Source: a virus. From it: a stretch of 64,000 bases of DNA. Below the pieces are notes generated by a model. It did no database searches and was not told where the DNA came from. It worked only from the letters and a program-made list of their open reading frames with translations. The stretch spans positions 1 through 64,000 of the IMG/VR virus record IMGVR_UViG_3300037420_000837; one strand, 5' to 3'. Below are positions 1,514 through 62,821 of this stretch, piece by piece (positions within the stretch are counted from its first letter, which is position 1; every line of letters starts with the position of its first letter). The position numbers were made by a program, and so were the translations under genes.

Positions 1514-1538
1514 CTAAGGGGGCTTTTAAGTCTGATGG
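1514..1538 (-). repeat. 25-nt motif copy (CATCAGAC..AAAAGCCCCCTTAG), co-oriented with gene 644..1507
   Basis: read as rc: CCATCAGACTTAAAAGCCCCCTTAGGAGCCCATG. Confidence 0.85.
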
Positions 1539-10865: not shown

Positions 10866-10890
10866 ATATATTTGGGACCCTAACGTCCCT

Positions 10891-10915
10891 CAGGGGGCTT
10901 TTTTGTCTGATGGGG
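10891..10915 (-). repeat. 25-nt motif copy upstream of terS
   Basis: rc: CCCCATCAGACAAAAAAGCCCCCTGAGGGAC. Confidence 0.85.
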
Positions 10916-11022
10916 AATATCCCTCCCAAATGTCACCTTTGTCAGGCCCTTTATAAGTACATAACCTAGGGGGGTACTACCCTATAGGGGGATATTTTTG
11001 ACTTCCTATATAAGATGACTCT

Positions 11023-11049
11023 GGGGGGGGGAGGGGGGGGGGAGGGGGG
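11023..11049. repeat. homopurine G9-A-G10-A-G6 tract (G-quadruplex-capable / slippage-prone)
   Basis: seen directly in sequence. Confidence 0.9.
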
Positions 11050-11179
11050 TATTATTGATATTAGAGGCTGACAGCCTCATTTTGGCTAAGTGCTTTATTT
11101 GCACCAGATAGCCCAAAAAGTGTCACAAAACGGCTCGTAAGTCGTTGATTCTACGTAGACAACTTTCAGACATCTCTCC

Positions 11180-11208
11180 CATCAGACCTCAAAAGCCCCC
11201 TCTGGAGG
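11180..11208 (+). repeat. 25-nt motif copy facing rightward block
   Basis: CATCAGACCTCAAAAGCCCCCTCTGGAGG. Confidence 0.85.
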
Positions 11209-15091: not shown

Positions 15092-15121
15092 CATCAGACC
15101 TTAACAAGCCCCCTTAGGGGC
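15092..15121 (+). repeat. 25-nt motif copy plus GCCCC-TTA-GGGGC hairpin, upstream of 15131 ORF
   Basis: CATCAGACCTTAACAAGCCCCCTTAGGGGCAAGGAGCCTATG. Confidence 0.85.
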
Positions 15122-23151: not shown

Positions 23152-23163
23152 ATTTGTTTTTTC

Positions 23164-23188
23164 CTAAGGGGGCTTTTGCTGTCTGATG
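23164..23188 (-). repeat. 25-nt motif copy (reverse orientation) abutting 3' end of RNA element B
   Basis: CTAAGGGGGCTTTTGCTGTCTGATG. Confidence 0.85.
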
Positions 23189-25086: not shown

Positions 25087-25233
25087 TCTAACTTAGTCTG
25101 AGGGCCCCCCGGATAAACAAGGCTGCTAAGGTGTCCGGTGGAGACGGACTGGAGGCAGGGCGGGATTTGGATACCGTTCTGCGATGCTCCGAAGGGGAGA
25201 AAGTTGTACAGGAAAGGGGCTTCGAGGTCTGGT

Positions 25234-25303
25234 GGGGCTGTAGCTCAGCGTTAGAGCACTCGATAATAATCGAGAGGTCGCCGGTTCAATTCCGGTCAGC
25301 CCA
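25234..25303 (+). tRNA. tRNA-like gene with canonical D- and T-arms but 6-nt anticodon loop (TAATAA) and G1-A72 mismatch; possibly pseudo-tRNA or tRNA-mimic
   Basis: GGGGCTG-TA-GCTCAGCGTTAGAGC-A-CTCGA-TAATAA-TCGAG-AGGTC-GCCGGTTCAATTCCGGT-CAGCCC-A; no encoded CCA. Confidence 0.5.
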
Positions 25304-25308
25304 TTGAG

Positions 25309-25333
25309 CATCAGACGGTAGAAGCCCCCTTAC
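25309..25333 (+). repeat. 25-nt motif copy immediately after tRNA-like gene
   Basis: CATCAGACGGTAGAAGCCCCCTTAC. Confidence 0.85.
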
Positions 25334-30455: not shown

Positions 30456-30465
30456 GAGGACGAGA

Positions 30466-37950: not shown

Positions 37951-38216
37951 TTGTCTACTATTTTCTCTGGGGGCTGTTACAACTTGCCTTCTGGATGACT
38001 CTTATAACCGTGGCCCCGTATTGGGTTGGGAAGTATAGCTATGCGCTAATTGCTTACCTCCAAGACGGGCGACGGAAAACCTTGAGAGAGCAGGTGGCTG
38101 ACCTCAACGCGGACAACGAGAGCATCAAGTACCTTGCGTTGTGGATGGTAGGGATGGTGTCAAGCTTTGTGCTTGGCATCCTCTTAGTTACAGCCTACTT
38201 TCTCGGAAGACCCTAA
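37947..38216 (+). CDS. small membrane protein (2-3 TM)
   Basis: 89 aa; stop TAA is inside motif copy 38213-38238. Confidence 0.4.
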   Translation: MIVYYFLWGLLQLAFWMTLITVAPYWVGKYSYALIAYLQDGRRKTLREQVADLNADNESIKYLALWMVGMVSSFVLGILLVTAYFLGRP

Positions 38217-38238
38217 GGGGGCCTTCTAAGGTCTGATG
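38213..38238 (-). repeat. 25-nt motif copy (reverse), left arm of inverted pair
   Basis: CTAAGGGGGCCTTCTAAGGTCTGATG; contains stop codon of 37947..38216. Confidence 0.85.
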
Positions 38239-38427
38239 ATTGATGCGGTGCGGGTGGGTATTGTTTAAATCTGACAAACAGGGACGTACCGGAGAGTGGA
38301 ACACACCAGTTCTTCTCTTCCTTGGCGACAACCCTGTGGCAACGTCTGCTAGGGGGCTTGACGACCCAGTGTCTGATGCCCTCCAACAAACGCATCTAGA
38401 GGAGAATATCCCTCTAGGCAACTCACT

Positions 38428-38453
38428 CATCAGACCTTAAAAGTCCCCTTTGG
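38428..38453 (+). repeat. 25-nt motif copy, right arm of inverted pair, upstream of rsr
   Basis: CATCAGACCTTAAAAGTCCCCTTTGG. Confidence 0.85.
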
Positions 38454-40417: not shown

Positions 40418-40487
40418 GCAGGGATGGTGTAGAGAACGGTTACTTCTGACTCTTAAACCCGTACCGTTTTCGTTTGTTCCTCCCTGC
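40418..40487 (+). ncRNA. structured RNA element, family copy C1 (candidate Y-RNA-like), 7 nt after methyltransferase stop
   Basis: closing GCAGGGA/TCCCTGC; conserved 5' TGGTGTAGAGAACGGTTACTTC and 3' CGTTTGTTCC; inner AACGGT/ACCGTT stem. Confidence 0.5.
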
Positions 40488-40496
40488 AAAAGATTC

Positions 40497-40625
40497 GGGA
40501 GTGGTGTAGTAGACAGTTACTTCCCTTATAAGGACGATGGCGTTGGTTCGAGTCCAACCAGAGACGAGAGTCTCTGTAGCTCAGTGGTAGAGCACGACCG
40601 TTACTGTTTGCGATTGTTCCCTCCC
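40497..40625 (+). ncRNA. structured RNA element, family copy C2 with tRNA T-arm-like and D-arm-like modules (candidate YrlA-like)
   Basis: closing GGGAG/CTCCC; 5' GTGGTGTAGTAGACAGTTACTTC, 3' GTTTGCGATTGTTCC; T-arm GTTGG-TTCGAGT-CCAAC (40542-40558); canonical D-arm TAGCTCAGTGGTAGAGC (40577-40593); hairpins CCTTATAAGG and AGAGAC-GAGA-GTCTCT. Confidence 0.55.
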
Positions 40626-43495: not shown

Positions 43496-43520
43496 CTAAG
43501 GGGGCTTCTTAGGTCTGATG
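43496..43520 (-). repeat. 25-nt motif copy (reverse), left arm of inverted pair
   Basis: CTAAGGGGGCTTCTTAGGTCTGATG. Confidence 0.85.
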
Positions 43521-43577
43521 GTACAGGGCGTGGTAGCTGATACTCAAAGTACACGAGTCGCTAAATGCAGCTTCTAT

Positions 43578-43605
43578 CATCAGGCCGTAGAAGCCCCCTT
43601 GGAGG
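43578..43605 (+). repeat. 25-nt motif copy, right arm of inverted pair, upstream of 43610 ORF
   Basis: CATCAGGCCGTAGAAGCCCCCTTGGAGG. Confidence 0.85.
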
Positions 43606-47364: not shown

Positions 47365-47722
47365 GAAAGACCACAACGCGGATTGTCAAAAGATTCTCGG
47401 GCAGGAGTGTAACGAGGTAAACGCGTGGTTGGATGACGCGTTTAGGAAGTTCGGCCCTCGTCACAGATTTGTGAAGCATCACTGGGAAGGCGTGGCCAAG
47501 GCTGAGGAGTTGTTTGGTGAGACCGGCAAACAAGCGGCCATCATCCACATCCTCCGAGACTGCGGCCACATCCCCAGCGCAAAGGACTACGAGGATGGGA
47601 CGGTAGATGTCCTCGGGTTCAAGCAAGATGACGGGGAGTATTTCATCGGCCACTGGGATGCAATTGCGTTCCGAAAAGCCGTGAGCGAACACATCCCGTC
47701 CCTAGAAATTAAGTCCGTATAG
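47354..47722 (+). CDS. hypothetical protein
   Basis: ATG overlaps pol stop; stop TAG lies inside motif copy 47720-47741. Confidence 0.4.
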   Translation: MSSRKDHNADCQKILGQECNEVNAWLDDAFRKFGPRHRFVKHHWEGVAKAEELFGETGKQAAIIHILRDCGHIPSAKDYEDGTVDVLGFKQDDGEYFIGHWDAIAFRKAVSEHIPSLEIKSV

Positions 47723-47741
47723 GGGGCTTTTATGTCTGATG
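47720..47741 (-). repeat. 25-nt motif copy (reverse), left arm of inverted pair
   Basis: TAGGGGGCTTTTATGTCTGATG. Confidence 0.85.
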
Positions 47742-47872
47742 CCAAAGTGAGTGAGACCCAGATTTATCCCTGCCCAGCTTGTGGGCAGGATGCCTTTGTG
47801 CTCTTGGAGACCTCCGAGACGCACGAGAAGATTCTCGGGTGCCATCATTGCGGGTATCAGGAGGCCCTCTAA
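47732..47872 (+). CDS. mini zinc-ribbon protein (46 aa) enclosed by inverted motif pair
   Basis: CPACG...CHHCG; ATG is part of the motif copy (GGGGGCTTTTATGTCTGATG). Confidence 0.4.
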   Translation: MSDAKVSETQIYPCPACGQDAFVLLETSETHEKILGCHHCGYQEAL

Positions 47873-47897
47873 CATCAGACCTTAATAGCCCCCTTAG
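47873..47897 (+). repeat. 25-nt motif copy, right arm of inverted pair
   Basis: CATCAGACCTTAATAGCCCCCTTAG. Confidence 0.85.
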
Positions 47898-50935: not shown

Positions 50936-50940
50936 GAAAA

Positions 50941-50958
50941 GGCTCCCAATCGGGAGCC
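50941..50958. terminator. bidirectional hairpin between convergent genes
   Basis: GGCTCCC-AATC-GGGAGCC between 50935 (+ end) and 50963 (- end). Confidence 0.6.
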
Positions 50959-50962
50959 TAAT

Positions 50963-51796
50963 CTATTTCGGAAGCTTGTCTAGTTTACTTCGGACGGAGT
51001 CGTTGTCCGCAGGTGTTAAGTACAAAGCCGTTGTCTTCATATCCTTGTGGCCGAGTAGAGACTGCACCGTCCGCAGGTCAACCCCATTACGGAGCAACAA
51101 AGTCGCGTATGTATGACGCAGAGCGTGAAGCCCAATCCCATGAAAGCCAGCCAGATGCAACAGGCGCTTCCAGCGAGCCCGAAGAGTTCTCTCTGACGAG
51201 GTTCGCAGGATTGTATCCGGCGATTCCGCCTTTATCTGGCGCAGCAGCTCAAGCAAATCCGAGCGCAGCGGAACCGAGCGACCAACCTGAGTCTTCGATT
51301 GGTCTGCATCCAAAGTCAGAATCCCTGCATCCAAATCAAAGTTCCCCCAAGTAAGACGCACCATCTCCTTTGTGCGCAACCCCGTGGTCAGGCCGAGAAG
51401 TACTAAGGCCCTGTCTGCGGGGTTTTTTGCTGCCCCAAGAACCGCTTGGATAACCCTCTCGGGGATGGCCTTGCGCGGAGCTTGAGGCTCACGGAGCTTG
51501 CGGATGGAGCTCGCGGGGTTGAACGGGATATCCGGGTCGCGGTCTATCATCCAGTTCCAGAAGGCGCGAACTACGGTCACCTCGAAGTTGATGGTGCGGG
51601 TGGCAGCGCCGTCCCGCAAGCGGAGGATTTTGTAGTCCTCGATGTCCACGCGGAAGAAGTCCGCGACCCAGCGCTTCTCAGGGAAGCGAGAGAAGAAGTT
51701 GTCAAGGGCATCTGCATAGCGACGGGCAGTTGCTTTGGAGCTCGTCAGTTTGACGAAGTCCTCGTACTTGACGCGCATGTCATAAACTTTATTCAT
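50963..51796 (-). CDS. int: tyrosine recombinase/integrase
   Basis: C-terminal catalytic region LRHTYATLLLRNGVDLRTVQSLLGHKDMKTTALYLTPADND (R..HxxR...Y). Confidence 0.8.
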   Translation of the reverse strand: MNKVYDMRVKYEDFVKLTSSKATARRYADALDNFFSRFPEKRWVADFFRVDIEDYKILRLRDGAATRTINFEVTVVRAFWNWMIDRDPDIPFNPASSIRKLREPQAPRKAIPERVIQAVLGAAKNPADRALVLLGLTTGLRTKEMVRLTWGNFDLDAGILTLDADQSKTQVGRSVPLRSDLLELLRQIKAESPDTILRTSSERTLRARWKRLLHLAGFHGIGLHALRHTYATLLLRNGVDLRTVQSLLGHKDMKTTALYLTPADNDSVRSKLDKLPK

Positions 51797-52008
51797 AAGA
51801 AATCCGAACAGCTCAAGAAGAAACCACAGACTTCACAGTGAAGTTTGCAATGGCGTTCTTGGAGGGTGCCACACCCCGTTGGGCAGAAAAGGATGGCCGG
51901 GGGTGAGAGCCTTTCCTCTCGGCGTATTTCTGGAGATTCCATTTGCGGCGTTTGGGGAGTTTCTTGAGAGCTTCGCGACATTCTTTTATCAACGCTTTCT
52001 CCGGGCAA
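51793..52008 (-). CDS. small Cys-rich protein
   Basis: CPTGCG...HCKLHCEVCG. Confidence 0.3.
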   Translation of the reverse strand: MPGESVDKRMSRSSQETPQTPQMESPEIRREERLSPPAILFCPTGCGTLQERHCKLHCEVCGFFLSCSDFL

Positions 52009-52174
52009 TTGCCTTGTCTATGTCTTGACAGTGCCTGCCTAGCAAGAGGCCCGCACGCTCCATTAGCTTTTCGTTAGGCTCCAAGACGCGGATGACAACT
52101 TTCCTCTTTCGATATTCTAGCGTTATCTTAGCTTCTTCCAACTGTCCTCCCAAAAAGCAGAACCCCCCATCCAC
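51989..52174 (-). CDS. small basic protein (possible excisionase/regulator)
   Basis: 61 aa, upstream of integrase. Confidence 0.3.
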   Translation of the reverse strand: MDGGFCFLGGQLEEAKITLEYRKRKVVIRVLEPNEKLMERAGLLLGRHCQDIDKAIARRKR

Positions 52175-52291
52175 TGGGGACTGAGGGGTTCTTGACGGTC
52201 TAAGGCACCGAGATTCCTTGTCGGGTTTTAGATGCGTTCGACTCGAAGTACAAGCTGCTTGGCTTGTCTGATTATAAGACGCGCCGGTAGC

Positions 52292-55200
52292 TTATTTTGT
52301 TTCAAGTTCAGGTCGAATATCTTCGTGGAAGAACCGAAGAATCTCAAGCTTCTGTTCGTGCAGGTCTTTGATTTGCTGCATCTTCTCTTCGGGCTTGAGG
52401 TCGTTGTCCTGCGCCACGCGTTTCATCTCTTCGCGAATGGCTCCAAGGTCCTTCTCCATCTGCGCGACTGCCTCGTGAGCTTCGACAAGTCGCTGCCTGC
52501 GAGGGTCTTCCAAGTACTGGTCCGCACGGTCAAAGTCCGTGGCGGCGAGATGGTTGAAAGTCCGGTTGAAGATTCGCGAGGATTCTGCCGTGCGGTAGAA
52601 CTCCTGCTCAAGGTTGACTTCCACTTGGTCGAGCTGAGAGCCGACAAAGCGGCGAGCAATCGGGCCGACTACCGGAGCCTTGGCCCACTCCTCGTTGCCG
52701 GAGAGCGGGATGCCTCCAGTGTCGTTGCGGTTTTGCCCTTGGAGGGAGTCTGCCATGTTCTTAGCAAAGCCTCCAACGCCGGTTGTGAAGGAATCGTAGG
52801 CGTGCTCGAAGCGCTTGGGTGAGGTGAGCATGTCACCGACCACAGGCATCTTGGCGAGGCCCTGCTCTTGCCCGGAGTTGTCGTAGATGACCTTCGTAAC
52901 CTTCTGAGCCGTGACCGAGGTGTTCGGGTCGGATTTCTCTGGGTTCTCAAGGTCTTCCATTCCCTTGCCTTCGATGGGGATACCACGGTAGGAATCGTAG
53001 TTGGCCGCCTGCTCGATGGGCTCTTTGAGGATGGGATTGAGAGAGCTGAGAGCTCCGCGTCCGAGACCTTCCCATGGGTTGGACGCCCGGATGTTGAACT
53101 GTCCCGGGACTACGTTTGAGACAAAGTCCAAGGTCGTCTGCTTCCAGTCGATGTTCTTGCGGTAGGTGTCTTCGACCGCAACCTCGATGGGGTTGTAAAT
53201 GACCTTCGCCCAGTGAGGCTTGGGGACCTTGACGTAGTTCATGCGGGTCTGGCCAGTGGTGGTATCGTAGACCGAGCCCAGCATGACGTACCAGTAGTTC
53301 GTCTTGTCCGTGTCGGAGACGTGGTCGATTTCGAGCGAGCCATCATCCCTGACGTATTGCGAGTTCCATTGGAACTGCGCCATCGCCATCAGGGTTGAGA
53401 CTCCGAGCAGACCTCCGGCCATCTTCGGGTCAGATATCATGCGCCCAATAGTTCGTCCGGTTCCCTGCAGGTTCGCATTGAAGAACATGTAGACGAGGTT
53501 GATGGCTGGGGAGAGAGTGCCCGAGGAGCCGAAGTCCGGAGAGCCTCCGAAGTTGCGGGTCTCCCAAGCAGCTTCCTTGGGTGACATCCCGATGCGCTGG
53601 TTGCGCTTGAAGGACATCAGCTTGGTGCTCTGCTCGACGAGGTCGTTGAAGTCCTCAACGGTCTCGATGGTGCGGATGACGTTGCCTGCGGTAGCTTCAG
53701 CGGCTGCCTTGCCGTAGCGGCCTTGGGAGGCCATCTCGATAGGCTTGGCGACCATCTGCTTGAGCGGGTCAACCACCGGACGGTGGAACTCCCGCACGGG
53801 TGAGAGGTTGCGTTGGAGCGTGGAGAAGCCTGCTCTGGAGCGCAGGAAGTCGAGGTACTGCTGGTCCTGTGAGGCCACAGACTTGAAGGCTGAGAGCCAA
53901 TCGGGGACGAAGGTAGCAATGCCTCGGAGGCTCCGAGCGCCGGATTTCGAGAGCCCAGCGTAATCGCCTGCGTCACGCACAAGGTTGGGCACCGAGAACG
54001 CGAGGTTGGCGAGGGTTGCGCCGGTACGGAAGACTGAGGCAGTCGCCCGCAAGAGAGTGCCGCCCACGACAGCGGTTGAAGCGGTCGAGGCGTTCTCGAT
54101 GGTCGAGGCGACGAACTCAGGGACTGCGTATTCGGTCTTGACGCCATCATGCCACGCCACAATGATACCCTCGTTGGGAGCGAGAGTGTGGCGAGTGGCA
54201 GGCTGGATGAGTTGGCCCCAGCCGTTGGGGTCGATGCCAGCAAGGTTTAGAACCGAGCGCACCACGTTGTTCTTCTGGACTTCCTTGTTGGCAATCTCAA
54301 TCTGACGGAGCGCTGCCTCAAAGGGGTCCTGGTTGTAGAGCGGGGAGCCCTCAAGTTCTTGGAGAGCCCTGCGGGTTTTGACCTCCAGAGACTTCGAGGA
54401 GTAGCGAATCTCCGCCTTCTGCATCTCGTCAAGGATACGCTGGAGCGGGATGTAACCTCGGCCTAGTTCAAGGCCTTTGTTGTAGATGCCTTCGGAGATG
54501 AGACCCGAGGCGTGGAGGCTGTCCCACGAGGTCTCAAGCTCTTGGTAGACTTGGTCTGCCCAGCGGTTAACGCGGTCCCAGTTCTCGGGTCCGAGAGACT
54601 CTCGGGTGAGCTGTAGGTCGCGAGCCACCTTGGCGCGGGTGTAGCCCTCGGGGACCACCGTGCTCTGGCGGAGTTTGTTGAGATATTCCCGAGCGTCGGC
54701 GCGGGCCATACGGGCCTTGCGCTTGAGCTCGACTACCTCTCGCATCTTCGAGCTGGATTCCACACGGTCTTGGATATCCATGGTGAGGTCCTTGGCTTGC
54801 TGCTTGTATTGCGCAGCCTCGTTCATCAGCTTGGACATCTTGCCTTGGACGTTGCGGATAGCGCGGTCGTAGGCACGGAGGTTGAGCGTGTCCTTGAGAG
54901 GACCAAGCAGACCTGAGTCTGCGGCCTCGCGGGAGATTTTGCCCAACACAATCCGAGACGCGTAGGAGACTCCAGCACCGCCTCCGTAGGCCATGCGGGA
55001 TTCTTTCCACGGGTCTTGGTCGATGTGAAGCTCGCGGATACCGGTGCGGTTCTGGAAGTCCTTGATGACATCCGGTGCGAACATTCGCAGGAAGCGATTG
55101 GGATTCTGGTTGAGGTAGACGAATTTGTCGTAGAGTTTTTGGAGAGCGTTGTAGGGGAGAGTCCGAAGGGTCTCGACTCGCTGCGGCTCTCGGGTCATGC

Positions 55201-58200
55201 CCTGCTCGTTACGGATGCGGGTGAGCTCAGCTGAGACTGCCGGGATTTGCTCGGCATCTTGCTTGGCGAGGGTCTCGACCACGGAGCCTAGGCCGAAGAA
55301 GTCTGCCTTGAGCGTGGACTTGTTGTCTACGTTGCGGACGAACTCCCGGGCTTTGGCCAAGGCCATCGGGTCGTTGGCCCCAAGGCCGTCCTTGTAGAGC
55401 TGCATGGCTTTTTCTAGAACAAAGGCCTTGCGCTCTTGAGACAGGTCTCTGAGGGCCAGTTGGCGCGAAATAACATCTGTACCGGCAGCCGGTAAACTAT
55501 CGCTGAGCGTCTTGGCGTTGACAAGCGCTTTGACGGCATCGTCGGAGAGCGGAGGCTTAGCGGCAGACTTCTGCTCCATTGCCCGGAACAGTTCGTTGTT
55601 GATGTCGATGAGTTGCTGGTGGGCGACGCCAGACTCCTCCATGACGTGCATCAAACGATTGATGGTCTTGAAGAGAGCAGGGTCGTCGGATTCTTTGAGA
55701 CCAGCAAATTTTTGGTAATGACGAGCTTGGAGCTGCTGGGCGATGCGGTCTCTGTACAAGGCCAGCAACGCCATGTGGGTGTCGGGCTTGTCCTTGAACG
55801 CACGGTCAATGTCGGCGGACTTGAGGCCGGTTTCGAGGAGCCTGACCTTCATCTTCTCACGCGGGTCGGTGATTTGAAGCTGGTCGCCCTCGGCACGCCA
55901 CGTGGAGAGCGGCGGAGCGCCCTCACGGGCCATGTCGTACATGGCCTTCATGCTAGCAGGTCCGGGCTCCCCGATGTACTTGTCGGCAAGTTTTTCTGCA
56001 AGGGCACGCTTGGCCGCCCCGTCGAGGTCCGGGCGTTCCTTGACGAAGTCGAGGATTTTCTCTACAACTATCTTGCCCGTCTCTGGGTCGAACTGGGTGA
56101 TATGGTTGAGCTTGTCGAGGAGGTTGGCGTTGGGGGAGAGCGCCTTGACATCAGACACAGAAGCCCCCTTAGGAGCTTCGGGCTTAGGGGCCTCAACCTT
56201 AGGCGCAGGACTTGCCGTGACGTTCTTGGCTTCCTCCACCTTGACGGTGTTTTGAGGAGTCGGCTTGCGTGCCTCGTCGATGGGCTTCGGAGCGACAACT
56301 TGCTCCCGCTGCTCAGGCCCTTCGGCCATGATGCGGTCGACCGGCTGCACATATTTCTTCGAGCCCGACCGGAACTTGACTTTCTCGCCGTCGATGCTCT
56401 CGATAATGCCACGCAGCACGGTGCCGGTGGGCAACTTGACAGCCACACTGTCCCCGGGCTTGCGTTCCACTAAGGGGGCTTTTTGGTCTGATGATACAGA
56501 GCTTACAAGCTTCTCCGGAGCCACAGCCTTGAGCCTTGCCGCCACCTTCTCCAGCACCGTCTCAACTGTGTGCGTCGCCTGCCCGAGCTGCTCAAGCCGC
56601 TTGTTGTAAGCGTTCATGAGCGCGATGTTCGGATTGTTCTCTGGGTTGATGAGCTTCGAGTTGTCGGCCTTGGCAATCTTCTTAGCCAGCGCGGGCATAG
56701 CCTTGCGGATTTCAGCGCCGGTCATCGAAGCAATCTTGGTGTCGAACTTCGTGAAGGTATCCTTGAGACCTTCTTGGTAGAAGTAATCCGAGAAGTACCG
56801 GCCCTGCGGGAGGGCTTTGGAGGGACTAAGGTCCGGCTCACGCTCCGGCAGGAGCACTTCCTTGGCCTGCACGGCCTTGCGCACGGCGTCCGTAGCCACG
56901 GCTGCGAGGCGCTTGTTGCGCTCGTCCGCGAGGCGTTTTTGGACGGCCTCGACACCTTTGTAACCAAATTTTTCGCGCAGGAGTCCCGTGTCCCTGTAGA
57001 GATGGCCGAGCTCGTCAGAGGAAAGATGCTCAAGCTGGCGCTTGCCAGAGACTAGGTCGGTCAAGACCTCGCGATTGATTTTCTCTTGCACCCCTGAGAC
57101 CTTGGACAGATTCTCAATGGAGCGGTTGATGACCTCAGCTTTCTGTTGGAGCTTGTCGGCAGCGGCTCGGATTGGCTCGCGGTTCTGCTCGCGGATGAGT
57201 TCCTTGGCGGCCTTAGGGTCGACGGCCTTGAGCTCGCGTAGTTGCTCACGCGCAGCACGGTCCTCAGGAGACAAGCTACGCTCGTCCCCAATGAGCGTTC
57301 GCGGTTTCTTGCCGGTGATGGTCTGCAAGGTGCGGAGAGAAATCTCCGGAAGGATGCTCTTACCTTGGCCCTTCCGGAAGGGGTAATTGATTATGACCGG
57401 AGTCTTGTTCTCAAGGATGCTCTCGTACTGAGAAATGATTTCCGGATTGATGGCAGGGATGACACCACTGTCAACGTCTGCCTTGATTTTCTGAAGCTCC
57501 TTGCGGATGAACTCGTGGGCCTCTTCGACCTGAGCCTTCTGACGAGGAGTGGTGTAGCGTTGCAAGCGCTGGATGTAGGGCTTGCTCTGGTCTTGAACAT
57601 CCCCGAGGGCTTGATGGATGGCCCGCTTCTCCGCCTTGATGGAGGTTGGAAGCTGGTCACGGAGCTCCTTAGCTACGGTGTCTGAGGCGACTAGGTTGTC
57701 AAGGAACTGCTTGCCTTTGAGGGTAGTGTCCCGAGCGGTCTTGAGGTCGCCCAGCAGAGTCCGAGCATCGGCGTCGCCGAGAGCTGCGTGATACTCCGTC
57801 TGGGTGGCTTTGATTTGTTTCTCAAGCCTCGCATTGTCTTTGTTGAGGAACGCGACCTGATTGTCTCTGAGCAGCCCTCGTTCATGCCCCTTGGCCACCG
57901 CTTGGTCGTGCTTGGCCAACATCTTCTTGTTGGTCAGGTAGCGCTCTTGAAGGTCTCCGAGCTTGGCTTGGAGTTCAGTGGCTTTGGCTTGGTCTGTCTG
58001 CTTGACAGGCTCAATGCCTTTCGCCATATCTTCGCCTGTGCCGGGGCCGACTTTCTCCGCCCGAATGACACTCGCTAACTTCCGTGAGTACTTGTTGAGC
58101 GTAGCGGGGTTGCTTCCCTGATAGGGCTCAAAGCTCCCGTCAGAGAATACCCGAGCAACGCTCCCGCCACGCTTCTCAAGCGCAGGAGAGATGTCGGGCT

Positions 58201-60007
58201 GCTTGCCTAGGAATGTGATGTCTCCGCTAGGAGAGACGTGATAGAACTGCCCCGGACGGCTTATTTCTTCCGAGCTGAGCGCTCCATTGCCCCCTGCAGC
58301 GACGGTCTGTTCCGCTGTAGGTTGTGCTCCTGACGCTTCAGGCTTCGCCGCTGGGCTCGGGCGCGGGCCTTGGACTTGGGCTCCAGCAGGTTTCTGGCGC
58401 TTCTCCTTTTGCGCGTCCAAGATTCCCGCCAACGCGTCCGCTGCGGCGGTGTCACCAAGTTCTCTGGCTTTATCCAGTTGCTTCGAGAGTTTCGCAAACT
58501 CGTAGTCCGTGAGGGGTTCCCCGGGTTTAGATAATTGTCTATCGTCGCGCTGAGAGGTCTGTCGTTGCGGAAGTGGGATAGGTAAGCGCAGGCGGTCAAA
58601 CGCATCGAGATGTTTCGTCATCAAGTCGCCACGTCCCCGAGCGTAAGCAATACGCCCCTCCGAGTCGGCTACAACGAATAGTTTCTCGGGATTGGAGCCC
58701 AAGAATTTATTGAAACGTGAAGGTGGGATGGAAGACTTAACCTCCCGGACGCCTCGGTCATCAAACTCAAAGAAACGCGACTTCGCCAGCGTGCTGCCGA
58801 ATCCCGGAGCCGTCTCGGAGGGCGCGACCCCCTCGTTCTTCGGGAATAGGGTTTCTCCGTGCTCTGCATTGAACTTGACCATGAACTCTGCAAAAGCTTG
58901 GGGCCCTGCTTGCATGGCCTGTTCAAAACCTTCTTTGAAGCCCGGGACGACCTCCGCACGTTTAATGAAATCACGTGCAGCATCCAGCTCCATACGCATC
59001 CGACGGAGACGCCGCTCGCCCATCTGCTCCACCTCCGCCATGCTCTGAGCGAAAGTTTCAGTTTTAGGGGAGATTGGCGTAGGAGCCGGTTTAACGGCCT
59101 GCTGCGCCTTCGATGGGGGTTGGGCCGTTCCAGCTTGCTCTTGCGGCACTGCGCCCGATTCTGCCACACTGGCAGGGGTTTCCGCAACCAGCTTACCTTG
59201 AATCGGGGCTGTGGATTTCTGCTTTGCCTCCTCCAATTTAGGGGAGCGGAAAGCCTCGACGCCGTGTAGGATGGGGTCGGTAAGCGGGAGCATCCCGGCG
59301 AAGTTACCGCCGAACTCTTGGGCCTCAGGGGAGAAGCCCCGGGCCTTGAGCTCTTGGACGGTTGTCTCAGAGGCTACTCCAGAGGCTGTCAGAGCTACTG
59401 CAGTCCGGATAGGCTGGGTGACAAATGACCCTGCAATCAGCGGGGTAGCCATCCCACCGGCACCCGAGAGCACCTCGGAACCAGCCTTGAGCTTTTCTTT
59501 CTTATACTCCGGAAGGTTTTGGGTGGCCTTGCCTTGGAAGGTCGCCGCAAGCTGCTTGGCGTCCGCTTTGGCCGAGCGGCCTACACCTTTCGTGAAGCGG
59601 ATAGCGCCCGGGACTCCGGTCTGTTCCAGCTCCTCTCCGAGGTGTTGTTCGGTGGAGGCTGTGGCCAGTTGGTCTCGATAAGCCCCGAGGTCTTTGCGGG
59701 TGATGGTGTTTGCGTCCGTCAGGTCAAAGGCATCGAGGTCAGCTTGGGAGGCGTTCTGGTAGTAGAGATGCCCGTAAGCCTGCCCGTACTCCGGAGTTTC
59801 CGAGAGCTTGCTCAAGCCGAGAGGCATGGGAGCCCGAGGGGCAGGCGGGACGAAGTCCTTATCAAAACCCCCAAAACGCTCAATCGCGACCCGAGCGTTA
59901 GCTTCCTGCTGGGCATTGAGTTTGCCAGAGGAGACCAGCGTTTGGAGTCGCGACCTAAGCATCTCCCGGTCATCCGGGTGAAGTGTATCTACGATATTGT
60001 CAGCCAA
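52292..60007 (-). CDS. giant virion-type protein (2571 aa), mostly helical/coiled-coil; candidate internal/ejection or tape-measure-like protein
   Basis: single uninterrupted ORF; N-terminal half rich in KAEL coiled-coil heptads; no polymerase, SLT or other catalytic motif recognised. Confidence 0.65.
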   Translation of the reverse strand: MADNIVDTLHPDDREMLRSRLQTLVSSGKLNAQQEANARVAIERFGGFDKDFVPPAPRAPMPLGLSKLSETPEYGQAYGHLYYQNASQADLDAFDLTDANTITRKDLGAYRDQLATASTEQHLGEELEQTGVPGAIRFTKGVGRSAKADAKQLAATFQGKATQNLPEYKKEKLKAGSEVLSGAGGMATPLIAGSFVTQPIRTAVALTASGVASETTVQELKARGFSPEAQEFGGNFAGMLPLTDPILHGVEAFRSPKLEEAKQKSTAPIQGKLVAETPASVAESGAVPQEQAGTAQPPSKAQQAVKPAPTPISPKTETFAQSMAEVEQMGERRLRRMRMELDAARDFIKRAEVVPGFKEGFEQAMQAGPQAFAEFMVKFNAEHGETLFPKNEGVAPSETAPGFGSTLAKSRFFEFDDRGVREVKSSIPPSRFNKFLGSNPEKLFVVADSEGRIAYARGRGDLMTKHLDAFDRLRLPIPLPQRQTSQRDDRQLSKPGEPLTDYEFAKLSKQLDKARELGDTAAADALAGILDAQKEKRQKPAGAQVQGPRPSPAAKPEASGAQPTAEQTVAAGGNGALSSEEISRPGQFYHVSPSGDITFLGKQPDISPALEKRGGSVARVFSDGSFEPYQGSNPATLNKYSRKLASVIRAEKVGPGTGEDMAKGIEPVKQTDQAKATELQAKLGDLQERYLTNKKMLAKHDQAVAKGHERGLLRDNQVAFLNKDNARLEKQIKATQTEYHAALGDADARTLLGDLKTARDTTLKGKQFLDNLVASDTVAKELRDQLPTSIKAEKRAIHQALGDVQDQSKPYIQRLQRYTTPRQKAQVEEAHEFIRKELQKIKADVDSGVIPAINPEIISQYESILENKTPVIINYPFRKGQGKSILPEISLRTLQTITGKKPRTLIGDERSLSPEDRAAREQLRELKAVDPKAAKELIREQNREPIRAAADKLQQKAEVINRSIENLSKVSGVQEKINREVLTDLVSGKRQLEHLSSDELGHLYRDTGLLREKFGYKGVEAVQKRLADERNKRLAAVATDAVRKAVQAKEVLLPEREPDLSPSKALPQGRYFSDYFYQEGLKDTFTKFDTKIASMTGAEIRKAMPALAKKIAKADNSKLINPENNPNIALMNAYNKRLEQLGQATHTVETVLEKVAARLKAVAPEKLVSSVSSDQKAPLVERKPGDSVAVKLPTGTVLRGIIESIDGEKVKFRSGSKKYVQPVDRIMAEGPEQREQVVAPKPIDEARKPTPQNTVKVEEAKNVTASPAPKVEAPKPEAPKGASVSDVKALSPNANLLDKLNHITQFDPETGKIVVEKILDFVKERPDLDGAAKRALAEKLADKYIGEPGPASMKAMYDMAREGAPPLSTWRAEGDQLQITDPREKMKVRLLETGLKSADIDRAFKDKPDTHMALLALYRDRIAQQLQARHYQKFAGLKESDDPALFKTINRLMHVMEESGVAHQQLIDINNELFRAMEQKSAAKPPLSDDAVKALVNAKTLSDSLPAAGTDVISRQLALRDLSQERKAFVLEKAMQLYKDGLGANDPMALAKAREFVRNVDNKSTLKADFFGLGSVVETLAKQDAEQIPAVSAELTRIRNEQGMTREPQRVETLRTLPYNALQKLYDKFVYLNQNPNRFLRMFAPDVIKDFQNRTGIRELHIDQDPWKESRMAYGGGAGVSYASRIVLGKISREAADSGLLGPLKDTLNLRAYDRAIRNVQGKMSKLMNEAAQYKQQAKDLTMDIQDRVESSSKMREVVELKRKARMARADAREYLNKLRQSTVVPEGYTRAKVARDLQLTRESLGPENWDRVNRWADQVYQELETSWDSLHASGLISEGIYNKGLELGRGYIPLQRILDEMQKAEIRYSSKSLEVKTRRALQELEGSPLYNQDPFEAALRQIEIANKEVQKNNVVRSVLNLAGIDPNGWGQLIQPATRHTLAPNEGIIVAWHDGVKTEYAVPEFVASTIENASTASTAVVGGTLLRATASVFRTGATLANLAFSVPNLVRDAGDYAGLSKSGARSLRGIATFVPDWLSAFKSVASQDQQYLDFLRSRAGFSTLQRNLSPVREFHRPVVDPLKQMVAKPIEMASQGRYGKAAAEATAGNVIRTIETVEDFNDLVEQSTKLMSFKRNQRIGMSPKEAAWETRNFGGSPDFGSSGTLSPAINLVYMFFNANLQGTGRTIGRMISDPKMAGGLLGVSTLMAMAQFQWNSQYVRDDGSLEIDHVSDTDKTNYWYVMLGSVYDTTTGQTRMNYVKVPKPHWAKVIYNPIEVAVEDTYRKNIDWKQTTLDFVSNVVPGQFNIRASNPWEGLGRGALSSLNPILKEPIEQAANYDSYRGIPIEGKGMEDLENPEKSDPNTSVTAQKVTKVIYDNSGQEQGLAKMPVVGDMLTSPKRFEHAYDSFTTGVGGFAKNMADSLQGQNRNDTGGIPLSGNEEWAKAPVVGPIARRFVGSQLDQVEVNLEQEFYRTAESSRIFNRTFNHLAATDFDRADQYLEDPRRQRLVEAHEAVAQMEKDLGAIREEMKRVAQDNDLKPEEKMQQIKDLHEQKLEILRFFHEDIRPELETK
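56470..56493 (-). repeat. 25-nt motif copy inside giant gene, co-oriented, translated as SSDQKAPL
   Basis: CTAAGGGGGCTTTTTGGTCTGATG on plus strand. Confidence 0.85.
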
Positions 60008-60009
60008 GG

Positions 60010-61176
60010 TTAATTACCTATTGCGTTCTTGATGATGTTGTCGACTTGCTCTGGCGTCAATCGTGGGGCTGCACTTGGCGCTGACGGAGAAGGTGCGACA
60101 GCTTTGCTGGGCGTCTTCTTGCCAGAGGATTTAGAGAAGGCTCCCCCTGAGGGGTCGACTCCTTGGTGGGATTCCTTGAAGGTGTCTACGATACCTTGGT
60201 TGTACTTCTCCCATTCACTGGGATTCTTGTAGTCCTTGATGCCGAGACGTTTGGCTTGGAGGGCGGTTTTGTAACCTCCCTTGGGGTCGAGGAGTTGGTT
60301 CTTGGCGAGCTCCCAATCAGCGGTGATTATGCGCTGGTCGGTGTCGGAAAGGCCGCCGTTCCTGCGGTCGACTGCGGTGGTGGCTCCGGCTCGGCTGCCT
60401 GCCTGCTGGCCTGCCATCACAGAAGCAAGACGCTGGGTTTCAGTTGCGAATCCCGTGGGGTCTTCCTCTGGGTCGAAGCCGTTGGCAAACGCGAGACGCT
60501 CCGGGAGAGTCTTGAGACCTCCACCGTATGCTAAGCCCTTTCCGGGAATTCCCGGAATCTTAACTGCGGCTCCGTCTGCGGTGATGCCATACAAGCCATC
60601 AGTGCGGTTCTCGTAGTGTTGGTAGGCTTTGCCTTGGTTGGCCAAGGCTCTCCCACCATTCATGAAGTACGCCGCGTGACCAAGCTTGTAGTAGGAATCC
60701 GCGAGTTTGTCTTCCAAGCCAATCTTCTGCATCTCGATATTGAGAGGCATCTGGGCTCGGGCAATATACTCTTGGCGCTGTTGCTGAGCGCCCCCTACAA
60801 GTCCCCGGGCTACGTTAGCGATGTTGTCGCCAGCGTTCATGGAGCTGGGCCCCATGTTGCTCAAGGCAAAGAGGCCGTTCTCGATTCCCCGCGAGAGCGC
60901 GGGATGGTCAGCGAAGTACCCGTTGTTGGGGAGAATCAGATTCGGACCAGAGCGAGGCAGGTTCGCCTGCATCTGGTTGAAGACATTTTCGTACGGGGAC
61001 ATGCGCTGTTTGACAGCGTCCATCAGGTCGATGTAGGTGTCGCCGTAGCGGGCGTTGACAAAGTCGCCGCCTCCGTAATCCCCGCTGAGAGGAGCCTGTT
61101 GCTGGACAGGCATTCTGTAACCGCTGGCGGGATTGAAGAGGTTGGCAAGGCCAGAAAATACGTTTGAGAAACCCAT
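60010..61176 (-). CDS. hypothetical virion protein (Gly/Gln/Asn-rich)
   Basis: 388 aa, low-complexity C-terminus. Confidence 0.45.
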   Translation of the reverse strand: MGFSNVFSGLANLFNPASGYRMPVQQQAPLSGDYGGGDFVNARYGDTYIDLMDAVKQRMSPYENVFNQMQANLPRSGPNLILPNNGYFADHPALSRGIENGLFALSNMGPSSMNAGDNIANVARGLVGGAQQQRQEYIARAQMPLNIEMQKIGLEDKLADSYYKLGHAAYFMNGGRALANQGKAYQHYENRTDGLYGITADGAAVKIPGIPGKGLAYGGGLKTLPERLAFANGFDPEEDPTGFATETQRLASVMAGQQAGSRAGATTAVDRRNGGLSDTDQRIITADWELAKNQLLDPKGGYKTALQAKRLGIKDYKNPSEWEKYNQGIVDTFKESHQGVDPSGGAFSKSSGKKTPSKAVAPSPSAPSAAPRLTPEQVDNIIKNAIGN

Positions 61177-61179
61177 GGT

Positions 61180-61872
61180 TTAACCTCTGAATCCCGGCCC
61201 GAATAGGTTGGAGTAACTGGAAGGTTGCGCGACGAAGGAACGGGAGAAGCTGCCGCCCATGTAGGGCTGCGAGGCGTAACTTGTCGAGAACGGATTCCCC
61301 CAGAGGTTGCCGCCAATGTTGCTTGCAATACCTGCGCCTGTGGCCGCAATCTTGCCGCCCAACGAACCGGCCTGTGCCGCCATAGAAGCTCCGCCCGTCA
61401 TGATACCGGTGGCAACTCCGAGGCCAGCGCCTACGACCTGCGGGAGCCACGTGCCAAGACCTGAGGTTTTCTCAACTGACTCTTGTCCGGTCTGGAGAGG
61501 CTTGTAGTTCATTGCCTGACCGCTGGCCGCCATGCGGCGGTTCTCGGCGTCGAAGAGTCCATTGAGGAAGATGTTGGATTCGCTCGCGGAGTTCGCTCGG
61601 TCCTGCGCGGCAGCAAGCTGCTGCATCGCTCCGGAGTTATTTGCGGTGCCCATCATCTGCCCACGTTGGAACAGGTTCTGCATCCCGCGCTGGTTAATCT
61701 TTTGCTGTTGACCAAGTGCCATCTGCAAGTTCTGGTTAAAGTAACTTGCCGTGAGGGGGTCCTTCATATAATCAGTCAGAGTGTTCTGAATCGGAGTCTG
61801 CAGAGTATTGAAGGTGTTCATACTCGGCTGATTATATGTATTGGTTGTCTTGGTCTCTTTTTTGCTTCCCAT
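61180..61872 (-). CDS. hypothetical virion protein, Gln/Asn-rich with glycine-zipper C-terminus
   Basis: GAGLGVATGIMTGGASMAAQAGSLGGKIAATGAGIASNIGG. Confidence 0.45.
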   Translation of the reverse strand: MGSKKETKTTNTYNQPSMNTFNTLQTPIQNTLTDYMKDPLTASYFNQNLQMALGQQQKINQRGMQNLFQRGQMMGTANNSGAMQQLAAAQDRANSASESNIFLNGLFDAENRRMAASGQAMNYKPLQTGQESVEKTSGLGTWLPQVVGAGLGVATGIMTGGASMAAQAGSLGGKIAATGAGIASNIGGNLWGNPFSTSYASQPYMGGSFSRSFVAQPSSYSNLFGPGFRG

Positions 61873-61881
61873 CGGGAGTCC

Positions 61882-62232
61882 TTAGAGATTCTTCTTGAAG
61901 CGGTATTCAGCGGTTGGGCTGGTTTGTTCCCCGCCCCAGTTCTTGATAACCTTCTGCCACTTCTCGTCAGCGGTGTCGACGTTGAAGTAATAGAAAGGAA
62001 CTCCTTGGAACCTGAGCATGTTTTCTAAGCCCCAGATGAACAGGGCCTTTCGCGAGTCGGGAGCCGAGGCGTCGAAGAACACAGGGTCAATCTCCGTGAC
62101 TGTTCGGATGACTGCGTAGTCTGTCTTCCCGTCGCGTCCGTCCATGGCCACTACAATACATCCCGGGCCAAGGTCAGACTTCCCTTTCAGATTCTCAACT
62201 TCTTCAGGTTTCGCAAGGCGGATTGGTTCCAT
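61882..62232 (-). CDS. hypothetical protein
   Basis: 116 aa ORF. Confidence 0.4.
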   Translation of the reverse strand: MEPIRLAKPEEVENLKGKSDLGPGCIVVAMDGRDGKTDYAVIRTVTEIDPVFFDASAPDSRKALFIWGLENMLRFQGVPFYYFNVDTADEKWQKVIKNWGGEQTSPTAEYRFKKNL

Positions 62233-62501
62233 TATCTGTCCTCTAACTTGATAAACTCAATCGGCGGGGTAGGCTCGTCGAGGACGATACCTAGCTTCTC
62301 GCAGATACGTTGCTGCGCATGGTAGATATGGGGAAGGTGGTTTGTCGCCATGCTCTCGACAAACTGCCTAGAAATCTCGTTTGCAACTGATTGCCGGATA
62401 AACCAACGTACGACTTGGATACAGTACTTCGTTAGGGTGGCAGCTCCAACGAGTATGGCTACTCCAGAGCTGGTTGCAAGGACGAGGGACGTGGTTGACA
62501 T
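62232..62501 (-). CDS. small membrane protein
   Basis: 89 aa, C-terminal TM helices; motif copy immediately upstream of ATG. Confidence 0.4.
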   Translation of the reverse strand: MSTTSLVLATSSGVAILVGAATLTKYCIQVVRWFIRQSVANEISRQFVESMATNHLPHIYHAQQRICEKLGIVLDEPTPPIEFIKLEDR

Positions 62502-62821
62502 TAAGGGTTTGAGGGGGCTTTTGTGTCTGATAGAACCCCGGCTGCAGCCAAGCTTGCCTTGACCGCCTCCACTTGAGCCTTCACATTCAGCAAGGCCGTG
62601 TGGGTTTCTTCAGACTTCGCCACCTGCTCCATGATTAAGGTTTGAACATCGGTTTCAAAACCAACTGCAGTGGTTCCAGCATCCTCAACAGCCTTGTCGA
62701 GTGCCATGACATTGAGGGTGTGGATGTTGTCCGTGGAGGGGTCATCGCAGCACCGCAGGGTGACTGCGATTTCTCCATTGGACAGGTCTTTGATTTCAAT
62801 TACTTTAGTAACACATGCCAT
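62501..62821 (-). CDS. hypothetical protein
   Basis: 106 aa ORF. Confidence 0.4.
   Translation of the reverse strand: MACVTKVIEIKDLSNGEIAVTLRCCDDPSTDNIHTLNVMALDKAVEDAGTTAVGFETDVQTLIMEQVAKSEETHTALLNVKAQVEAVKASLAAAGVLSDTKAPSNP
62511..62533 (-). repeat. 25-nt motif copy about 10 nt upstream of start of 62232..62501
   Basis: GAGGGGGCTTTTGTGTCTGATAG on plus strand. Confidence 0.8.

Follow-up and report, generated by a model that had tools for sequence, protein, structure and literature searches.

The giant open reading frame (ORF) at 52292-60007 of the viral DNA analysed here (the window, meaning the whole stretch of 64,000 nucleotides (nt), positions 1 to 64,000 of the IMG/VR virus record IMGVR_UViG_3300037420_000837) probably codes for an ejection protein that a temperate short-tailed phage keeps inside its virion and that has no known effector domain; we put the probability of this reading at roughly 60%. 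Most probably, the 2571-amino-acid (aa) product belongs, as a divergent member, to the LPD38 class of giant virion proteins of phages. We base the assignment on the LPD38 module, the proteomics of the relatives JC1 gp69 and phi24B gp47, the position of the gene at the end of its operon, synteny, and the complete lack of cysteine. A preliminary description of this DNA, made from the letters alone, had proposed an internal/ejection or a scaffold protein; the former is the reading that we favour, and no support was found for the latter. What is new is that this LPD38 protein is effector-less and nearly an orphan, and that a pair of the dispersed 24-nt signal of the phage is conserved inside its gene.

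An LPD38 module without a recognisable enzyme

Pfam searches with the whole protein and with ten overlapping 400-aa windows returned a single domain above threshold, LPD38 (Table 1), which is a non-catalytic domain of unknown function and marks the "polyvalent" giant virion proteins of phages. The PHROGs added one family of unknown function (PHROG 9854, spanning aa 1851-2558), NCBIfam gave only one meaningless 17-bit match, and a search of all PDB sequences by phmmer and with a profile produced no match to the protein. Strings of the types DxDxD, HExxH, Walker A, HDS and RxxxKxxxxxxxYG were likewise absent. The earlier statement that the ORF has no recognisable catalytic motifs, and in particular no T7/N4 RNA polymerase or SLT signatures, thus agrees with the Pfam, PHROG, NCBIfam, PDB and string searches: the windowed domain search yielded nothing past LPD38, and no well-known enzyme such as a virion RNA polymerase (vRNAP) was recovered. 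As for the two-barrel, crAss-like type of vRNAP, which is marked by double-psi beta-barrels with a DxDxD metal site, that string is lacking and the model of the C-terminal region (aa 1651-2571) is all-helical. No second effector or enzymatic domain was found either; besides LPD38 the protein contains only unannotated modules, namely a ~95-aa domain, a short block between the two motif arms described below, and helical modules.

LPD38 is part of a conserved C-terminal module that the protein shares with the giant proteins of other phages. In metagenomic homologues this ~900-aa module sits behind very different N-termini, with LPD38 at the same C-terminal place in P0001, P0003-P0006 and P0009. 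Identity over the module is ~46% to P0009, 27% to P0001 and 22% to P0002; for P0009, the value of ~46% applies to the C-terminal 1071 aa, as against 37% overall. The N-terminus of P0001 carries a Strawberry-notch (Sno)-type helicase and DUF6884 and that of P0004 a PBECR1 nuclease, and those of P0002, P0003, P0005 and P0006 show nothing known. Among known phages, tblastn matches were confined to the C-terminal third at 22-24% identity. They comprised the Bacillus megaterium podophages Page, Pony and PK1, about 100 Vibrio phages, p69 of the Aeromonas phage phiARM81mr, which is annotated as a "putative virion structural protein", and the giant "DarB-like" protein of the Burkholderia phage DC1, whose C-terminal ~460 aa align with aa 2096-2558 (22.9% identity, E=1e-6). 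The window protein has two features of the LPD38 class, the domain near the C-terminus and a gene among the virion genes of a portal/terminase phage, and lacks a third, the several effector domains from which the name "polyvalent" derives.

Polyvalent proteins are predicted, in a passage of Iyer et al. (2017, PMC5512222), to be packaged in the head and injected. Within the class, such packaging has been shown for two proteins only. JC1 gp69 (4515 aa), the same-group counterpart of the DC1 protein, is virion-associated by mass spectrometry (PMC9144972). The second is gp47 of the Stx phage phi24B, a 2811-aa protein that combines LPD5, LPD1 and LPD38 with a MuF-C peptidase. Proteomics finds large amounts of it in virions, but it is absent from the cryo-electron microscopy map, and it has been proposed to be an ejection protein that forms a trans-periplasmic conduit (bioRxiv 10.64898/2026.04.10.717836).

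The giant gene is intact and ends a syntenic structural operon

The gene map places a plus-strand early/replication block at 11.6-50.9 kilobases (kb), with genes for a Sak4-like annealing protein, DNA polymerase, primase and exonuclease, and two minus-strand blocks, one at 1.5-10.4 kb with the large terminase and portal genes and one at 51-64 kb with small genes, the giant gene and a tyrosine integrase. The co-orientation of the giant gene with portal, terminase and integrase, as described earlier, is evident from this map. Directly before the giant gene stand genes for proteins of 116, 230 and 388 aa without any database match, and phmmer and profile searches against PDB sequences gave no match for the 388-aa or the 230-aa protein; these two are candidate internal/ejection proteins in their own right.

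The same arrangement recurs in the locus of P0009 (L009). In the BLAST comparison, the window and L009 match in the same order through the 116-aa protein (43% identity), the 230-aa protein (40%), the 388-aa protein (32%), the giant protein (46%) and the integrase (52%); across L009 and a second locus, L013, which encodes P0008, identities of the small genes, giant gene and integrase range from 28 to 52%. The order in L009 is an adaptor-like protein of 375 aa, proteins of 638, 543, 109, 113, 237 and 374 aa, the giant protein (2265 aa) and an integrase (284 aa), and the layout of L013 is alike. In the P0002 locus, two SU10-type adaptors and proteins of 1066 and 930 aa are followed by proteins of 129, 257 and 434 aa and then by P0002 itself, with a cell-wall hydrolase (lysis) gene directly behind. 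The giant gene is thus the last and largest of a run of no-match genes that closes the structural operon of a podovirus. The internal core/ejection proteins of T7 and P22 are encoded at this position, and the giant gene resembles the gene of a gp16-type protein, the largest and last of the internal-gene run, by position only.

The ORF itself, predicted earlier with 2571 codons at 52292-60007, was recovered on the minus strand, with by far the top coding score of the window in a simple codon-usage gene map. Its TTG start lies 2 bases past the TAA of the upstream gene (60010..61176), and the homologue in L009 also starts with TTG directly behind its upstream gene. Through this start the giant gene is translationally coupled to the small genes upstream. 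P0009, a metagenomic protein, is collinear with the giant protein from ~aa 500 to the C-terminus at the 37% overall identity given above. An assembly artefact, which the preliminary description had considered, and a fusion of two genes are both excluded by this collinearity, and the ORF is, on sequence comparison, one intact gene.

Composition, model of the fold, and what weighs against the assignment

The giant protein has no Cys in 2571 aa, as against 1.51% in the other predicted proteins of the window (P~1e-17). The 388-aa and 230-aa proteins have none either, and every retrieved homologue has 0-2. The absence of Cys would be consistent with unfolded passage through a narrow channel and with action in the envelope. 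A Gly/Ala-rich, moderately hydrophobic segment at aa ~166-240 is a candidate membrane-active region; similar segments were seen by eye in P0009, P0010 and P0015, and the 230-aa neighbour also has a Gly/Ala-rich hydrophobic stretch.

The protein had been described as predominantly helical with lysine-rich central repeats. The first part is supported only for aa 1651-2571, where an AlphaFold model built from 8 sequences is nearly all helix with two beta-hairpins, at low confidence (pLDDT 59.7, pTM 0.34). The second does not, as Tandem Repeats Finder detected no tandem repeats in the giant ORF; what is there is a Pro/Lys low-complexity linker at aa ~1230-1285.

Several points weigh against an ejection protein. 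No strong transmembrane helix is predicted (the top 19-residue hydropathy is 1.28), and Foldseek matched the C-terminal model in the PDB only to generic long helices at E>1, so that, with a poor model and no match, there is no structural link to any solved ejection protein. The virion association is carried over by analogy from proteins that share the C-terminal module (at 22-24% identity) or the Pfam domain only. Finally, the N-terminal 1650 aa could hide an enzyme of unfamiliar fold; the crAss-like virion RNA polymerase is reportedly a case of an enzyme of unrecognised fold hidden in a virion protein.

The N-terminal two thirds

The N-terminal ~1650 aa have almost no relatives. An exhaustive HMMER search with aa 1-1200 against 1.84 billion representative proteins gave 12 matches, 3 large and 9 small. 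Only P0008, P0009 and P0010 share the central module (aa ~700-1170). Eight of the nine small proteins have in common the unannotated ~95-aa domain, with 34-44% identity over the aligned region and 50-60% over their best-matching 50-60 residues; one of them also bears an ART-PolyVal ADP-ribosyltransferase. An AlphaFold model of this domain (pLDDT 67) found no match in a fold search of the PDB. The ninth small protein, P0015, aligns with the Gly/Ala-rich segment and not with the ~95-aa domain. P0008 is a truncated close relative of P0009 with a weak GNAT acetyltransferase-like insert in its N-terminal part (E=8.5e-4). This insert, and a second of ~100 aa that lies exactly between the motif arms (P0008 occupies L013 10001-14872), indicate that modules come and go at fixed linker positions.

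Other searches returned less. With a word-based tool, the full-length query gave 2 matches, a three-sequence profile 5, and the C-terminal 921 aa alone none; a search for related loci in viral, genome and metagenome collections, by single protein or by alignment, found no relatives, and megablast of 24 kb against known phages gave no match.

These results bear on a different view of the protein, that it is mainly a cryptic injected enzyme (an odd-fold vRNAP or a DarB-like anti-restriction protein) for which the LPD38 module is only the packaging handle. Effectors do precede the same module elsewhere, as in P0001 (helicase), P0004 (PBECR1 nuclease) and, weakly, P0008 (GNAT), the DC1 homologue is annotated with SLT, helicase and methylase, and the N-terminal 1650 aa are without assignment. 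We nevertheless consider this view unlikely: neither the whole protein nor its 400-aa windows matched an enzyme in Pfam, NCBIfam, the PHROGs or the PDB, the Walker A, DxDxD, HExxH and T7-type RNA polymerase strings are missing, the protein is low-complexity and linker-rich, and its sole conserved small modules are the inter-arm block and the ~95-aa domain, which has no fold match.

If the giant protein is an ejection protein, it would be packed in the capsid at low copy number, its conserved C-terminal module handling the head or portal, and during infection would be driven through the tail in an unfolded state. In concert with the 388-aa and 230-aa proteins it would extend or line a channel across the cell envelope and escort the DNA, with the Gly/Ala-rich hydrophobic segment as the membrane-active part. 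Giant virion proteins take up 10-20% of some podovirus genomes, and their role in DNA delivery is largely obscure; a protein that has the LPD38 module but no known effector domain may reveal what the class does at its core without enzymes, namely packaging, ejection and channel building. With three relatives among 1.84 billion representative proteins, the N-terminal two thirds are essentially unexplored sequence space.

A conserved inverted motif pair inside the giant gene

The motif noticed earlier at 56470-56493 (24 nt, or 25 nt if counted from 56469) does lie in frame inside the giant ORF. It had been taken for a single embedded motif; it proved to be a member of a genome-wide family and one arm of an inverted pair, the partner of which, at 56149-56172, had been overlooked. 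The family consensus, in the orientation that we call M' (the opposite one being M), is CATCAGAC, 5-7 variable bases and AGCCCCCTTAGG, a bipartite 24-nt element with ~16 copies in the window. The motif is far above chance, with 3 matches at up to 3 mismatches against 0.00 expected, and 9 matches to a looser pattern against 0.23 expected.

The relatives carry the pair as well. CATCAGAC is wholly absent from L009 and L013; their arms read CACCAACC, 5-8 bases and AGCCCCC[A/G]TAGG, and form an inverted pair at codons that align with the window arms (L009 10801-10822 (+) and 11083-11102 (-); L013 13459-13480 (+) and 14053-14072 (-)). L009 has a third copy in another gene. The second block is thus common across lineages and the first differs (CATCAGAC versus CACCAACC), with agreement among the copies within a genome. 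The peptides encoded by the arms differ, SSDQKAPL and PKGASVSD in the window versus ITNPQEAPI and PTGASRVG in the relatives, indicating that it is the DNA or RNA signal that is kept. Since the pair stands at homologous codons of two relatives in their own lineage variants, it is, as far as sequence comparison can tell, functional and not a product of chance; the same observation rules out the recombination scar suggested in the preliminary description. No inverted motif of this kind was seen within the more distant LPD38 genes of L010 and L001.

The segment between the arms contains a block, GDSVAVKLPTGTVLRGIIESIDGEKVKF...VQP, which, read from its sequence, would be a small beta-rich domain. 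Because a sequence block of this segment is common to the giant protein, P0008 and P0009, the segment is ancestral and not an insertion. A miniature inverted-repeat transposable element or other mobile insertion was accordingly rejected, the inter-arm segments of the different pairs being moreover mutually unrelated. On the coding strand, the order of the in-gene arms is M'...M in all three phages, the reverse of the intergenic M...M' order, and the in-gene stem is present in both the minimum-energy and the centroid folds of the mRNA (z=-2.1).

Dispersed copies and the case for an RNA-level role

In this largely coding genome, nearly all members of the family fall between genes or overlap a stop codon. 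Ten M' copies have a gene of the same orientation downstream, and six copies point against the surrounding genes. Behind the M' copies at 1537, 10912, 15092, 38428, 47873 and 62532, a predicted gene start follows within 7-61 nt; behind those at 25309 and 43578 there is an ATG with a Shine-Dalgarno-like sequence close by, and the 3' end of the motif itself often provides a Shine-Dalgarno sequence. At five intergenic loci two copies are paired in inverted orientation as M...M', with 51-267 nt between the arms. Each pair forms a stem of ~24 base pairs (bp) that is interrupted by an internal loop where the variable spacer lies and that encloses a tRNA-like gene or a short spacer; the three that were folded gave z-scores from -4.7 to -7.2.

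We favour, on the strength of these predicted folds, an RNA stem or processing role for the in-gene pair, since the same family makes stems around the tRNA-like RNA and between cistrons and the arrangement is strictly non-random. RNase III processing stems are known from T7 and from rRNA operons, and in silico folding alone gives the RNase III-type feature, at least ~20 bp of double-stranded RNA made from flanking arms. The in-gene pair would act in cis on the giant-gene mRNA, where the long stem would be processed, or would throttle or divide expression. A fuller scheme, which we put forward tentatively and with odds clearly against its holding in every part, is that one 24-nt family builds ~24-bp stems genome-wide, excising the tRNA-like and short RNAs and coupling or gating cistrons, and in the giant gene cuts or throttles the mRNA, thereby setting the dose of the ejection protein or releasing a C-terminal product, perhaps with the phage's Ro60/Y-RNA system.

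Three observations speak against stems as the purpose of the motif. Some copies have no partner, complementarity is not maintained between the spacers of paired arms, and, in a check for strand-specific G-U wobble as a mark of selection on the RNA, the four deviations in the window pairs preserve wobble pairing on the sense strand, whereas the sense-strand stems of L009 and L013 contain an A-C mismatch. All three fit a sequence-specific protein-binding site at least equally well, and a protein that recognises the sequence in DNA or RNA is a serious competing reading.

Such sites could bind a phage-encoded sequence-specific protein, a "stoperator" repressor or another regulator, with the in-gene sites silencing or modulating transcription of the giant gene. 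This we regard as possible though doubtful. Two strictly conserved blocks around a non-conserved spacer of variable length, and the occurrence of single copies as well as pairs, are what DNA sites would look like; the first block differs by lineage in all copies at once, as with a co-evolving trans-acting protein; the phage is temperate, as its integrase indicates; and two copies lie in the divergent early/late control region. The orientations are harder to reconcile with it, as all five intergenic pairs are M...M' and the in-gene pair is opposite in three phages, which is unexpected for orientation-free operators. In addition, the copies lie close to stop codons and Shine-Dalgarno sequences and not to sequences that resemble promoters, and no candidate binding protein was identified.

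It is a good deal less probable that the motif is a promoter and that the arm at 56470-56493 starts an internal transcript for a shorter C-terminal protein. The ten M' copies upstream of co-oriented genes, with starts close by and a 3' end that often gives a Shine-Dalgarno sequence, would suit a promoter; that arm is co-oriented with the giant gene, and the second arm, downstream, contains AAGGGGG, 5 nt behind which comes an in-frame GTG. This GTG, however, is absent in L009. No sigma-70 -35/-10 hexamers with a 16-18 nt spacing were found, a promoter scan was empty at 56149-56493, and no phage RNA polymerase gene was found in the window. The six copies that oppose local genes include all left-hand intergenic arms and the arm at 56149, and the spacer between the blocks varies over 5-7 nt; a variable spacer is unusual for promoters of single-subunit polymerases. 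The "internal transcription start" proposed earlier was neither borne out nor refuted: the motif has no likeness to sigma-70 promoters, about one third of its copies oppose local genes, and paired copies form long stems.

Very improbable is a site-specific recombination or cassette boundary, at which a recombinase or general recombination would invert or exchange the 297-nt segment, switching off the C-terminal half or swapping domains: a short tyrosine recombinase (277 aa) is encoded directly downstream of the giant gene, conserved there in L009, the extra ~100-aa segment of P0008 lies precisely between the arms, and inversion would bring a stop after 27 codons, an off switch, but ~16 dispersed copies in both orientations would scramble the genome, the motif is without the dyad symmetry of tyrosine recombinase core sites, the segment once inverted is closed in the frame that would be needed, and the contigs show one orientation only. 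A coding shufflon was rejected for the same stop after 27 codons and the closed frame.

Two further candidates were discarded. The motif is not enriched in IMG/VR (6 single matches) or in the genomes of 185,579 species (59 loci), so that it is not a host element of the repetitive extragenic palindromic (REP) type; the matches are at chance level or belong to unrelated repeats (Acutalibacteraceae, Acidocella), and none is related to the window by tblastn. Hammerhead, Y-RNA and other Rfam families at the motif were also rejected, as Rfam finds only the tRNA and a weak YrlA-like match elsewhere.

The in-gene pair is a conserved regulatory nucleic-acid signal inside a coding region, and its arms can be recoded synonymously, which would separate protein effects from DNA or RNA effects. 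The protein assignment will hardly surprise phage specialists; the in-gene element and the N-terminal 1650 aa are most worth following.

Other features of the window

The tRNA-like gene within one of the stems (25234-25304) is the only one of the window. It scores 50.7 bits against the Rfam tRNA model and is called "tRNA-???" by ARAGORN, which shows its anticodon loop to be abnormal. The gene may give a processed tRNA or a tRNA mimic similar to Y RNAs. A Ro60/TROVE protein with a vWA domain is encoded at 38500-39894 (+) (Pfam TROVE, 4e-16), with a methyltransferase gene behind it at 39875-40411 (+). At 40535-40596 (+) there is a match to YrlA-like RNA (a Y RNA and tRNA mimic) of 35.5 bits (E=5e-4), below the Rfam gathering score. 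A second dispersed 25-nt repeat family, GAGTGGTGTAGTAGACGGATACTTC, occurs at 15343-15367, 23036-23060, 40422-40446 and 40499-40523, the last copy forming the 5' strand of a stem around the YrlA-like element. An 18-nt inverted repeat resembling a tRNA T-arm, GGTTCGAGTCCAACCAGA, lies at 35098-35115 and 40545-40562, its second arm inside the YrlA-like element.

The early region also encodes two COOH-NH2 ligase-like proteins, a glutamine amidotransferase, an AAA ATPase and an SPFH/Band-7 protein (23208-24545, 28920-31497 and 19252-21320, all plus strand), a set that may be a DNA or metabolite modification module. The portal protein (1539-3524, minus strand) has its nearest known relatives, at 21-24% identity, in the freshwater cyanobacterial podophages A-4L, Pf-WMP3, PP, LPP-2 and CHP58; the window contains no HIP1 sites. 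The spacer between the giant gene and the integrase (51797-52291, minus strand) has conserved DNA blocks in L009 (14693-15044), where proteins are only 30-50% identical, and a small ORF within it is conserved too (GSHPRPSF...FTVKSV); the spacer is a possible attP or regulatory region. Between the convergent plus-strand block and the integrase, at 50940-50959, stands a perfect bidirectional terminator-like hairpin, AGGCTCCCAATCGGGAGCCT. Upstream of the small genes, a 376-aa protein (62825-63955, minus strand) ends in ...VHN and has a C-terminus like Hint/intein-type autoprocessing domains, and in L013 a faint Intein_splicing match is given by a 538-aa protein whose gene lies a few positions ahead of that for the giant protein.

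Table 1 Coordinates of the giant gene, its modules and neighbours, and the copies of the dispersed motif in the window
Feature	Position	Strand	Description
Giant ORF	52292..60007	minus	2571 aa/codons; TTG start at 60007; last gene of the late (structural) operon
Conserved C-terminal module	52328..54973	minus	aa 1679-2560; common to giant proteins of other phages
LPD38 domain (PF18857)	52733..53326	minus	aa 2228-2425; Pfam E=3.2e-18, 66.9 bits against a cut-off of 27
Arm M, CTAAGGGGGCTTCTGTGTCTGATG (coding strand)	56149..56172	minus	in frame; encodes PKGASVSD
Inter-arm segment	56173..56469	minus	297 nt = 99 codons; block GDSVAVKLPTGTVLRGIIESIDGEKVKF...VQP and Pro/Lys-rich linker
Arm M', CATCAGACCAAAAAGCCCCCTTAG (coding strand)	56470..56493	minus	in frame; encodes SSDQKAPL
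Central module	56498..57910	minus	aa ~700-1170; shared, among 1.84 billion proteins, only by P0008, P0009 and P0010
Unannotated ~95-aa domain	58088..58363	minus	aa ~549-640; TVAAGGxGAxSSEExxRP..F..S.SG...LGK.PD
Gly/Ala-rich, moderately hydrophobic segment	59288..59512	minus	aa ~166-240; candidate membrane-active region
388-aa protein	60010..61176	minus	Gly/Gln/Asn-rich, 0 Cys; its homologues in L009 and L013 stand just ahead of the giant ORF
230-aa protein	61180..61872	minus	Gly/Ala-rich hydrophobic stretch, 0 Cys; homologous in L009 and L013
116-aa protein	61882..62232	minus	42-43% identical to the syntenic gene in L009 and L013
Tyrosine recombinase (integrase)	50963..51796	minus	277 aa; 52% identical to the integrase behind the giant gene in L009
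Terminator-like hairpin and T-run	52161..52182	minus	~110 nt past the giant ORF stop; hairpin region kept in L009
M' copy	1514..1537	minus	fills the 31 nt that separate the portal gene from the one that follows; 3' end gives Shine-Dalgarno
Inverted pair M...M'	10889..11202 (10889-10912, 11180-11202)		divergent region, late minus versus early plus block
Single M' copy	15092..15115	plus	16 nt ahead of predicted gene start
Single M copy	23163..23188	plus	points against flanking plus-strand genes
Inverted pair M...M'	25214..25331	plus	stem carries tRNA-like gene 25234-25304; z=-4.7
Inverted pair M...M'	38215..38450 (arms 38215/38428)	plus	directly upstream of Ro60/TROVE gene; long stem, z=-5.9
Inverted pair M...M'	43498..43600	plus	103-nt hairpin, z=-7.2
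Inverted pair M...M'	47718..47895	plus	flanked by a small gene (downstream of the DNA polymerase gene) and by the genes that lead up to that of the primase
M' copy	62509..62532	minus	overlaps last codons of gene 62501..62821; ~8 nt before ATG of 62232..62501

Comparison with known systems

The window protein resembles phi24B gp47 in its giant size, in LPD38 near the C-terminus and in a gene located in the morphogenesis region of a short-tailed temperate phage. Unlike gp47, with its LPD5, LPD1 and MuF-C metallopeptidase, it has no second known domain, and the link between the two is the Pfam family only, tblastn having made no direct connection. With the "DarB-like" proteins of the Lessievirus group (Bcep22 gp75, DC1 and JC1 gp69), it shares C-terminal homology to the DC1 member and a gene that ends the morphogenesis module. 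Those proteins, however, have 4500-4600 aa and annotated SLT, helicase and methylase domains, none of which is detectable here; similarly, the methyltransferase and helicase domains of P1 DarB are lacking, with no Walker A motif.

The ejection proteins of T7 (gp14, gp15 and gp16) and P22 (gp7, gp20 and gp16) travel in the phage head and are ejected so as to span the cell envelope. The giant gene and its neighbours are like them in forming a small-to-large gene run at the end of a podovirus structural operon, and in helical character and membrane-active segments, which here are model-based and candidate features, respectively. The window protein is 2-4 times larger than these proteins, has no SLT domain like that of T7 gp16, and in the Pfam and PDB searches showed no sequence similarity to gp16 or to any solved chain. 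The N4 vRNAP, gp50, is likewise a giant protein that is packaged in a podovirus head and injected, and a terminal region of it is needed for encapsidation; in contrast to gp50, T7-like polymerase motifs are missing from the window protein, and neither Pfam nor the PDB gave a polymerase match.

For the motif, the nearest counterparts are the PeSL cassettes of T4, the stoperators of mycobacteriophages and RNase III stems, all of which are dispersed, phage-specific intergenic elements. The motif is like them in being dispersed, phage-specific, intergenic and asymmetric, with positions tied to gene boundaries, and here long stems with internal loops flank a tRNA-like RNA. It differs from all three in that one family forms both arms and single arms occur, and in that one pair lies inside a coding region, at a position kept between lineages.

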